This document shows, piece by piece, positions 23,756 through 26,530 of a stretch of 64,000 bases of DNA. Both the position numbers and the translations under genes were made by a program. How positions within the stretch are numbered: the first letter of the stretch is position 1; every line of letters begins with the position of its first letter. This DNA is from Dehalococcoidia bacterium (lineage in GTDB: Bacteria > Chloroflexota > Dehalococcoidia > Bin125): NCBI GenBank assembly GCA_963663235.2, contig CAXXNO010000006.1, positions 192,001-256,000 on the forward strand, given 5' to 3'. Below the pieces are notes generated by a model. It searched no databases, was not told where the DNA came from, and saw nothing but the letters and a program-made list of their open reading frames with translations.

Positions 23756-23899
23756 GCCGTTCGTGGTTCGACAGGCTCACCACGAACGGCTGAGGGCTCA
23801 CCCCGAACGGCTGAGGGCTCACCCCGAACGGCTGAGGGCTCACCACGAACGGCTGAGGGCCGACCACGGACGGCTGAGGGTTGGCCACGAACGGCGGAC
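23756..23899. repeat. REP-like palindrome plus about 6 tandem 21-bp copies of its 3' arm
   Basis: GCCGTTCGTGGT...ACCACGAACGGC 12-bp inverted repeat; GGCTCACC(A/C)CGAACGGCTGAG units from 23774. Confidence 0.9.
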
Positions 23900-23902
23900 C
23901 TC

Positions 23903-24085
23903 TCAGCCGGGCGGCGGCGGGATCTCGATGCTGTAGCGGGCGGCGGCTTCCGCGAGCTTCGCCGTGTCGGGCGGTCCGGCGTCGCCGGTCTCAGAAGCGA
24001 GGAGCTTCACCTCCATGCGCGAGCCCATCATCCAGACGGTCTGGCCCTCGCCGCTCTTGCGAGCGACCAGGTGATCGACGGTCAT
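23903..24085 (-). pseudogene. cupin-family gene remnant with apparent internal deletion
   Basis: GEGQTVWMMGSRMEVKLLASETG (cupin-like N-terminus) joined directly to PPDTAKLAEAAARYSIEI (cupin-like C-terminus); no metal-binding core. Confidence 0.55.
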
Positions 24086-24106
24086 GCGATCCCCCGCCTT
24101 TCGTCT

Positions 24107-24949
24107 CTAGGCCTTGGCTTCCGTCTCGATCGGGTGATCGACGGCGTCGCCGTACTCGTGCCAGGAAGCGTCGTAGACGCGGACGTCGTCGTAGCCGAGG
24201 AGCCGGAGGACAAACAGTCCGTGCGCCGCACGGATGCCGCCCTGTCAATAGGTGCTGACGCGCTTGTCCGGGGTGATACCGAGGCCGGTGAGTTGCTTGC
24301 GAATCTCGGCGGGCGGCTTAAGCGTGCGGATCGGGTGGTTGAGGTTGTCCATCCATTCGAGATGGACGGCGGTGGGGATGTGACCGCCGCGCTTGGCGCC
24401 GCGGGCGTTGGCGCCCGTCCACTCGCCGTCGGAGCGGACGTCCCAGAGGATCTCGCCCTGGTTGCCGATGCCTGCGGCGACGTCGTCGATGGTGCAGGAC
24501 CAGTGGTTGTTCTGCGCAGTGGGGGTATAGGTGGTGGGCTTGGGGCGGATGTTTTCGTTGGAGAGAGGGCGCCCGTCTGCGTACCACTGGTCGAGGCCGC
24601 CATCGAGGAGCTTGCAGCCGGCGTGGCCGTAGCGGTCCAGCGTCCACCAGAAGCGGGCGGCGAAGACGCCGCCGGATCCGTCGTAGGCGACGATGGTGTC
24701 ATCGTTGGAGATGCCCATCTTGCCCAGGAGCTCGGCGAACTTGTCGCCCTCGATGCCGAAGATGTCGGTGTCGTTGCCGTCGCCCTTCCAGTAACGGGAG
24801 CGGGCGGCGATGGCTTTGGGGATGTGGAGCCGCTGGTAGGCGGGGAGGAGGTCACAATCGACGACGACGAGGTTGGGGTCGTCGAGGTGGCCGGCGAGCC
24901 AGTCGGTGTCGACCAGGAGTTCGGGGTGGGCCCAGCCGTTGGCGGTCAT
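24107..24949 (-). CDS. two-domain sulfurtransferase (SseA/rhodanese), probable selenoprotein with UGA at the catalytic site
   Basis: [11 protein letters not shown]...GHIP..., then [14 protein letters not shown]...[11 protein letters not shown] continuing in frame to TAG at 24107. Confidence 0.9.
24215..24244 (-). promoter_or_regulatory. candidate bacterial SECIS hairpin
   Basis: UCCGUGC-GGC-GCACGGA stem-loop; loop G follows a 17-nt spacer after the UGA; outer CAG/CUG pairing. Confidence 0.7.
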
Positions 24950-25168
24950 CGTTGCGCTCCTCTCGGCGGAGTGGGACGTGCGCTGATCTGACGGGTGGCG
25001 CTCCTGCGAACACGCCAACCTGCCCTCCCCTTATAGCCGCAACCAGGCCGGCACGTCATCGTTCCGGGTTCGGCCCCGGCGAGGGAACGCCGCTCGAATC
25101 GGCATCGCTCCGGCCCAGCGCCCGGGCAGGACGCCAGCGAAAGCGGCCGAAGGACCGCAGAGGCATCG

Positions 25169-25705
25169 CTAGGGCTCGGGGATCCAGGCCAAGGCGTCCT
25201 CGGAGTGGCCGTTGGAGGGCGGGCAGAAGTGGGGGTCGCCCTCCAACGGCGTATCACAGAGCGGGCACATGGGGCGGCCGGCGGCCACCGTGGCGCCGGT
25301 CTGGACGGCGAAGAGCCGGCCCTGGTCGCGCGAGAAGGAAGCGCGAAGGGTGGGCTGCTCCGGGTCGGGGGCCTCGGCGTCGGTGGCGTAGATGGCCAAC
25401 CGGCGGGCCTTCTCCTCGTAGCCCAGAGCCAAGCGGGCGACGTGGAAATCGAAGGTGGGGTTGAGGGGGAAAACGCCGAGGGGCGGCGCCAGGGGTTTTC
25501 GAGGGGGGTCGTCATCGTGGCGGCGCTGGGCCAGCACCCGCTCAACGGCGGCAGCCAAAGCCTGCACCTGCTCCTTTTCGAGCCAGAGTGAGGCGCTGCC
25601 AGACTCGGTCACGATGCGGATGCGGAAGGTCCGCTGCCCCGGGGCACCGAGGGCCTCCGTCTCCAGGGAGCGGGTGGGGCCGAGGTCATGCTGAGCGTCG
25701 GCCAT
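25169..25705 (-). CDS. DUF3090 family protein
   Basis: ALGAPGQRTF, LEKEQV, AAGRPMCPLC...HFCPPSNGH. Confidence 0.85.
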   Translation of the reverse strand: MADAQHDLGPTRSLETEALGAPGQRTFRIRIVTESGSASLWLEKEQVQALAAAVERVLAQRRHDDDPPRKPLAPPLGVFPLNPTFDFHVARLALGYEEKARRLAIYATDAEAPDPEQPTLRASFSRDQGRLFAVQTGATVAAGRPMCPLCDTPLEGDPHFCPPSNGHSEDALAWIPEP

Positions 25706-25786
25706 AGGGGGCAAGTATAGCCGGGGACCGGCCGACGGCCACCGCCGCGCGGCGGGAAGCGACGCAGGCGCCAGCTTGACCGTTTA

Positions 25787-26083: not shown

Positions 26084-26530
26084 ATGCCGTCCGCCGTCTC
26101 AAGCGCCGAACGCAACCTGGCAGCGCGCGCGCACCTGTACGCGTGGCTCAGCATCTTGCCGCTGCTGGGGCTGTTTCCCACGGTCGGTCTCTACAACCGC
26201 TGCAAGGACGGCTCGCCGTGGGTAGCGCAGCAGGCGTTGCAAGCGGTGCTCTTCCAAGTGGTGACGTTCAACGTGCTCCTGGTGGTACTGGCGATCATTG
26301 CGCCGATCGCGCTGGTCGCGTGGAGCACGCGCTACAACGGCGACGCGCTGGCGCTGGCAGTGCTGCTGACCGTGTTGCCGTTCTTCGCGCTGCACTACGT
26401 GGCACAAGGGGTCAGCGCGGTGCGAGCCGCGCGGGCGATCCGGCGTCGGGAAGAGTTTCGCTATCGAGTGATCGGGCGATTAGTGGGAGCGCCGGTGTCG
26501 TCTGATCGCTCGCAAGACGGTGGCGACTGA
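26084..26530 (+). CDS. DUF4870-like membrane protein
   Basis: ERNLAARAHL...SPWVAQQALQAVLFQ...EEFRYRVIG; GGAG RBS. Confidence 0.8.
   Translation: MPSAVSSAERNLAARAHLYAWLSILPLLGLFPTVGLYNRCKDGSPWVAQQALQAVLFQVVTFNVLLVVLAIIAPIALVAWSTRYNGDALALAVLLTVLPFFALHYVAQGVSAVRAARAIRRREEFRYRVIGRLVGAPVSSDRSQDGGD

Follow-up and report, generated by a model that had tools for sequence, protein, structure and literature searches.

On the minus strand of the window, by which we mean the whole 64,000-nucleotide stretch of DNA that was analysed, a reading frame for a rhodanese-type sulfurtransferase meets a TGA codon at 24247..24245, and the question raised by this locus is whether the codon ends the protein or is read as selenocysteine (Sec). 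An earlier sequence-only reading had proposed a Sec-containing sulfurtransferase, and this proposal is supported by conservation, by the Sec machinery of the genome and by selection at the RNA level. The gene, its UGA codon, the hairpin behind it, the Sec machinery and selection acting on them are all present, and we consider it very probable that 24949..24107 encodes a genuine selenoprotein, a cytoplasmic two-domain rhodanese-type sulfurtransferase in which a catalytic Sec235 replaces Cys and is decoded through SelB and the hairpin.

The rhodanese gene, its UGA codon and the downstream hairpin

The coding sequence (24949..24107, minus strand) starts at ATG 24949..24947, reaches the TGA at codon 235 and, as claimed in the sequence-only reading, stays open for 45 further codons, which we confirmed by reading the minus strand to the stop codon TAG at 24109..24107. 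Translated with TGA as U, the full-length product has 280 residues, with U at position 235. In the mechanical list of open reading frames, the rhodanese starts at TTG 25018 and ends at the TGA; the start at ATG 24949 is backed by the N-termini of the orthologues, which begin at the same ATG. Upstream of this codon, at a distance of 7 nt, a Shine-Dalgarno-like element, GAGAGGAG (24964..24957, minus strand), can be read from the sequence.

The Pfam Rhodanese model (PF00581) matched two stretches of the 280-residue product with 113.1 bits, and PRK11493, a 3-MST model, aligned residues 10-277 with profile positions 4-280 of 281. Two-domain rhodaneses of the PDB align with residues 7-276 (best E = 5e-45), and the alignments with 3hwi, 3aax, 3hzu and 1uar run end to end (E = 5e-45 to 2e-43). 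The product therefore consists of two tandem rhodanese domains in about 280 residues, which is the SseA/COG2897 architecture. None of the NCBIfam equivalogs was reached at its cut-off by the rhodanese; the best was the 3-MST model NF008557 (104.9 versus 250 bits), and the scores for NF041203 rhodanese_LYCAU (16.4 versus 115 bits) and NF040901 ExtH (38.5 versus 200 bits) were also below the thresholds. Because the protein falls below the cut-off of every NCBIfam equivalog, we refer to it as a rhodanese-type sulfurtransferase and not as SseA. The name SseA or 3-MST was rejected on the NF008557 score and on the loop UQGGIR, the loop of SseA/3-MST proteins being presumably of the CG[ST]GVT type.

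In the alignments, U235 falls on the Cys with which the C-R-I-G-E-R-S loop of 3hwi, 3aax and 3hzu begins, and we take this loop to be the catalytic one of these rhodaneses. The UGA (24247..24245, minus strand) is thus placed at the catalytic position, in agreement with what had been proposed from the sequence. The loop at this site, U-Q-G-G-I-R-A, belongs to the C-terminal domain, and U235 aligns with the first position of its six-residue active-site loop, where the nucleophile is found. An in-frame UGA aligned with the Cys of homologues, with the frame conserved on both sides, is the pattern that identifies bacterial selenoproteins, and this is what we observed.

The hairpin that had been described behind the UGA is present as claimed. 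Its core occupies 24234..24218 (minus strand) and consists of UCCGUGC (24234..24228), the loop GGC (24227..24225) and GCACGGA (24224..24218); 10 nt separate the UGA from the 7-bp stem, and the GGC loop begins 17 nt after the UGA. The consensus spacing used by bSECISearch is 16-37 nt, and the 17-nt spacing falls inside this range. An extended imperfect lower stem (~24243..24207, minus strand; -22.3 kcal/mol) appears in the minimum free energy prediction only, with a register that varies among orthologues. Taken alone, the hairpin is weak evidence and not significant: its folding energy has z = -0.97 against shuffled sequences, 34 of 200 shuffles were as stable or more so, and in this genome of 69% G+C a comparable hairpin (stem of at least 7 bp, G-first loop of 3-4 nt, at 15-26 nt) is found behind 1.2-2.2% of the control codons. 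It is the comparative data that raise it above chance. An Rfam scan of 23900..25100 at E <= 10 returned three sub-threshold chance matches and no SECIS family.

Sec incorporation at codon 235 is a prediction from genes and RNA. By homology, SelB with Sec-tRNA(Sec) would be recruited by the hairpin, which starts 11 nt after the UGA; Sec would be inserted at codon 235, and the ribosome would then finish the last 45 residues of the active domain. Sec235 would act as the nucleophile, taking sulfane sulfur (or selenium) as an Se-S (or Se-Se) intermediate and then passing it on, so that it would carry sulfur or selenium much as Cys does in rhodaneses. An alternative that we regard as unlikely is that the protein, instead of being a generic sulfurtransferase, is a dedicated selenium-trafficking enzyme of a selenoprotein-rich lineage, which would carry selenium as a Sec-Se-Se(H) or Se-S adduct and pass the selenium to SelD, and that the hairpin belongs to a minimal, lineage-specific SECIS code for the SelB of Dehalococcoidia. 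If this were the case, selenoprotein synthesis would depend on two selenoproteins, the rhodanese and SelD.

Conservation of the UGA codon, the C-terminal tail and the hairpin

Among 40 sampled relatives, every one of the 24 further genomes that belong to the family (9 other genera) had an orthologue with the in-frame TGA, at 58-76% identity. The loci compared, 71 in number, comprise 27 orthologues read codon by codon (20 plus L040-L046) and 44 genome_contigs loci, which are titled as MAGs of uncultured Dehalococcoidia or Chloroflexota. Among the 71 loci there are 60 distinct coding sequences, with 51-76% identity, and the locus counts are not independent, because the loci are interrelated and part of the 44 probably derive from genomes already represented in G001-G024. 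TGA is present at the aligned codon in 71/71 orthologous loci, in the context Y/H-U-Q-G/A-G-I-R-A, and the in-frame C-terminal tail (44-45 codons) and the core CCGTGC-GGC-GCACGG are conserved in every one of them.

The strongest single result for selection at the RNA level is the codon alignment of the 60 distinct orthologues, in which 89 columns have a degenerate amino acid conserved in at least 95%. The third base is invariant in just 5 of these 89 columns, which are the consecutive codons 239-243 (ATC CGT GCG GCG CAC) and correspond to the hairpin. The Arg codon of the hairpin is CGT in 60/60 sequences, whereas at conserved Arg columns elsewhere CGT is in the minority (0 to 19 of about 57-60). 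Lower variation was also observed at codons 234 (TAT in 55/59), 236 (CAG in 59/60), 238 (GGC in 54/60) and 244 (GGA in 49/60). Both the protein tail and the RNA hairpin are under selection. A SECIS element is expected to be a stem-loop directly 3' of the UGA and under selection, and the hairpin of the 71 loci, with its frozen synonymous sites, has these properties. The locus thus provides a clean example of RNA-level selection within a coding sequence, with synonymous sites frozen only in the SECIS.

These data bear on the possibility that the TGA is a true stop, with a functional 234-residue product, and that the hairpin and the downstream region are kept as a transcript-stability or attenuator element or as a separate small ORF. 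Some truncated product is indeed to be expected, since Sec decoding is never fully efficient, and the hairpin by itself is statistically ordinary. However, the 45 downstream codons are conserved as protein in the upstream frame and supply the rest of the rhodanese fold, where YDASW.EYGN has its match in solved rhodaneses, third-base variation returns past the hairpin, as a coding sequence predicts, a truncated rhodanese would be left without its active site, and the genome decodes, as judged from 11 further genes, other known selenoproteins. We consider a true stop very improbable.

Among the orthologues, the invariant part of the hairpin is a 6-bp core, CCGUGC/GCACGG. When 27 orthologues were folded with RNAalifold, just this core was obtained and covariation was found in 0/6 pairs, so that the covariation suggested as a check on the hairpin did not materialize; compensatory changes are absent because the core is invariant. 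In the per-orthologue folds the lower stem pairs in different registers, and for this reason we do not claim a conserved extended structure.

The Tyr codon that precedes the UGA (24245-24250 region) is TAT in 55/59 orthologues, whereas other conserved Tyr columns favour TAC (43-53 of about 58-60); an effect of codon context next to Sec may lie behind this preference. Within 24185-24295, the summed contig depth reached hundreds to thousands, compared with 2-14 in the flanks, in all four runs; contigs from many related organisms match this region with at least 90% identity and tend to break there. An island of about 60 nt around the UGA and the hairpin draws these contigs of other organisms, which fits its conservation at the nucleotide level. 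The metatranscriptomic run X20 contained a 156-nt contig identical to 24333..24488, together with pieces of the conserved island of relatives, which does not by itself demonstrate transcription.

Homologues with Cys were also compared. Among the best 120 database hits, 65 are full-length forms, all of them (65/65) with Cys at the catalytic position, and 52 stop exactly at the rhodanese TGA, the gene being routinely misannotated by gene callers that halt at this codon. P0006 and P0007, with 60-62% identity the nearest full-length Cys forms among the database proteins, contain RAAQ and RAAE. In L047a, L048 and L049, which have Cys and an IRAAH or VRAAH peptide, the codons are CGG/CGC and GCC, and the hairpin cannot form. 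The suggested comparison of Cys and UGA forms thus gave TGA in the orthologous loci and, in more distant homologues, Cys without the hairpin. For this Dehalococcoidia family, the result amounts to an annotation correction: database records systematically give the enzyme as a fragment of 234 residues that lacks the active site, and metabolic reconstructions therefore overlook an active sulfurtransferase and underestimate the dependence on selenium.

Some related sequences deserve a separate mention. L047 (G040:C60:1163-3246) is the site of a head-to-tail pair of rhodanese paralogues. One copy has Cys and reads V-C-Q-G-G-I-R-A-A-Q, the other has TGA and reads V-U-Q-G-G-G-R-A-A-Q; in this Sec paralogue, L047b, the CCGUGC/GCACGG hairpin is absent. 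L056 (G003:C2:378813-380040) is a Cys-type CRIGERS paralogue with a TGA where its relatives have Trp (SSHS-TGA-LALK), which means that the copy is broken or that the letters are wrong. A database entry of 288 residues marked as the window's own, P0014, agrees with the rhodanese frame over 143 residues and from there on with the overlapping frame of the ORF 24082..24855, which suggests that the gene call is frameshifted or that the entry stems from a variant assembly of the rhodanese locus.

The neighbours of the rhodanese gene in the window are a convergent formate-tetrahydrofolate ligase (FTHFS) gene and, upstream on the same strand, the gene of a DUF3090 protein (25169-25714, minus strand), beyond which a DUF4870 membrane protein is encoded (26084-26530, plus strand). 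DUF3090 and DUF4870 adjoin the Sec rhodanese just in the nearest genera. FTHFS is nearby in 21/71 loci and DUF3090 in 9/71, the flanks available for some loci being 0.2-1.5 kb, and in three of the four more distant orthologue loci inspected an S41 peptidase is found upstream instead. No conserved operon partner was detected among the rhodanese loci compared; the neighbours differ between genera, and we infer no functional link from them. A small ORF downstream of the rhodanese (23903..24085, 60 codons) is probably not a gene, as none of the remaining 70 loci contains a relative of it. A tandem repeat with a 21-nt unit, GGCTCACCACGAACGGCTGAG, occupies 23774-23895 (5.8 copies, 91% matches), in the gap that separates the end of the FTHFS gene from the rhodanese gene.

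Selenocysteine machinery and other in-frame TGA genes of the genome

The source genome (G000) has 2.75 Mb in 14 contigs, is 91.9% complete and has 69% G+C. The Sec machinery, for which the sequence-only reading had proposed a search, was found in full: selA (551.8 bits), selB (359.1 bits), selD (357.8 bits) and a tRNA-Sec with the anticodon UCA (70.9 bits) are all above the curated cut-offs. The selD gene itself (L010, G000:C4:102276-106199) has an in-frame TGA at locus position 1531, in the context C-G-G-U-G-S-K, and an 8-bp stem with a GUG loop is located 33 nt after this UGA. Of the 27 genomes with a TGA at the catalytic site, selA was detected in 26, all but G040 (71% complete), and of the 14 genomes without a Sec rhodanese, in 9; no selA turned up in G039 (97% complete), where just Cys forms are present.

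A crude scan of the genome for TGAs that lie in frame between two stretches of coding signal yielded 62 candidates, of which 11, chosen for suggestive motifs, were compared with NCBIfam and Pfam; of the remaining 51, the majority probably represent adjacent genes that share a frame. In the 11 genes compared, the TGA is at the known Sec position of a known selenoprotein family: an FtrB-like protein, two CMD/AhpD-like CxxU proteins, ArsM, a Prx-like UxxC protein, SelW/Rdx, two UGSC proteins, two GrdB/PrdB-like proteins and a CC/Se protein, the last assigned by a weak match below the cut-off. The in-frame TGA genes lie on contigs C1 (L121, 26353-26853), C4 (L122, 786596-787249; L124, 747659-748444), C5 (L125, 45026-45451; L126, 50145-50408; L127, 50418-50951), C8 (L129, 143301-144224; L130, 95499-96764) and C12 (L123, 202740-203375; L128, 215234-215761; L131, 208504-208941). 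The SelW/Rdx gene and one UGSC gene are adjacent on C5. As predicted from its genes, the genome is selenoprotein-rich.

With SelD and the rhodanese, these genes make up a set of 13 sites. A stem of 6-9 bp with a G-first loop of 3-4 nt, 17-24 nt after the UGA, was present at 10 of the 13, the rhodanese included; terminal TGAs, Cys codons and random codons, taken as controls, had one in about 3% of cases, by a criterion that was fixed once the data were known. With its 7 bp, GGC loop and 17-nt spacing, the rhodanese hairpin is a typical member of this set. The compact SECIS hairpins of one genome could refine the bacterial SECIS models for lineages of high G+C content.

The composition of the genome also speaks to the idea that the UGA is read as a standard amino acid (Trp, Gly or Cys), through a reassigned code or a suppressor. 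UGA reassignments occur in some uncultured bacteria, and the position would tolerate Cys; nevertheless, 558 likely genes terminate in TGA, as do several of the rhodanese orthologues, the genome contains tRNA-Sec(UCA), selA, selB and selD, and its in-frame TGAs sit at known Sec positions and are followed by hairpins, all of which makes such a reading more improbable still than a true stop. Least credible of all is a pseudogene or an error, that is, a nonsense mutation (TGC/TGT to TGA) or a sequencing mistake in a Cys-type rhodanese, which would account for a gene-caller product that ends at codon 234, as 52 of the best 120 database hits do, but not for a TGA at the same codon in 71/71 loci (60 distinct sequences, at least 10 genera), for 44-45 downstream codons conserved in frame and free of neutral drift, or for the letter-for-letter agreement with contigs from three other studies. 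These contigs span 24225..24671 or more, differ at 0 letters and keep the TGA, which is therefore not an assembly error. All the refuting conditions set out in the sequence-only reading were decided in its favour.

Relation to known selenocysteine rhodaneses and SECIS elements

That Sec rhodaneses had already been reported, as the sequence-only reading acknowledged, is correct, since COG2897 forms have been in print since 2005. In the relevant passage of the Sargasso Sea selenoproteome of that year, a Sec 'rhodanese-related sulfurtransferase' of COG2897 is first predicted, with three genes and a drawn SECIS (PMC1088965), and the corresponding passage on the GOS data finds a Sec rhodanese-related sulfurtransferase again (PMC2398784). 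A 2026 review distinguishes five Sec rhodanese forms, of which form 4 is 'UxxG' (PMC13188914); set against its table, the protein described here has both the UxxG motif, as U-Q-G-G, and the PF00581 domain of this form. The rhodanese belongs to an already known Sec kind, and the known selenoprotein families do not change.

The novelty that had been seen in lineage and context is weaker than claimed. As for the lineage, the part of the BSepDB report that ranks organisms already places two Dehalococcoidia MAGs, with 49 and 46 selenoprotein genes, in its top ten (PMC13326102). What stands is that, in the published texts consulted, we found none that names a Sec rhodanese in Dehalococcoidia specifically, and supplements and BSepDB may well contain one. 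As for the context, no conserved operon surrounds the gene.

With the Sec rhodaneses of COG2897, as described in the published passages, the protein shares the rhodanese fold, the two domains of the SseA type, the catalytic Sec and UxxG, as well as a SECIS immediately behind the UGA, its apical loop containing a G, and the existence of many Cys homologues. The fit to these proteins, of which AACY01016424 and MCY3690685.1 are published representatives, is one of motif and description. In the present case, Sec is fixed across a whole Dehalococcoidia family together with an invariant hairpin core, and the passages in question contain no such description.

Solved Cys-type two-domain rhodaneses, including 1uar, 1e0c and 1urh, align over about 270 residues (E = 5e-45 to 3e-23). 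The protein resembles the Mycobacterium CysA/SseA-type thiosulfate sulfurtransferases 3hwi, 3aax and 3hzu, the Thermus rhodanese 1uar, Azotobacter RhdA 1e0c and E. coli SseA 1urh in length, two-domain layout and place of the catalytic residue in the loop; it differs from the solved Cys-type enzymes in having Sec instead of Cys and the loop UQGGIRA instead of CRIGERS. With the single-domain COG0607 proteins, NF041203 'rhodanese_LYCAU' (CxU) and the TsoB fusion, as far as they are described in the sources, it shares a rhodanese domain with Sec, but the architecture and the position of Sec are different, and the NF041203 match lies on another part of the protein.

Finally, the hairpin is like the bacterial SECIS of the E. 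coli fdhF type in being a stem-loop within the coding sequence, just after the UGA, with G as the first base of a small apical loop. It differs in being very compact, with a perfect, G+C-rich stem of 6-7 bp and a loop of 3 nt.
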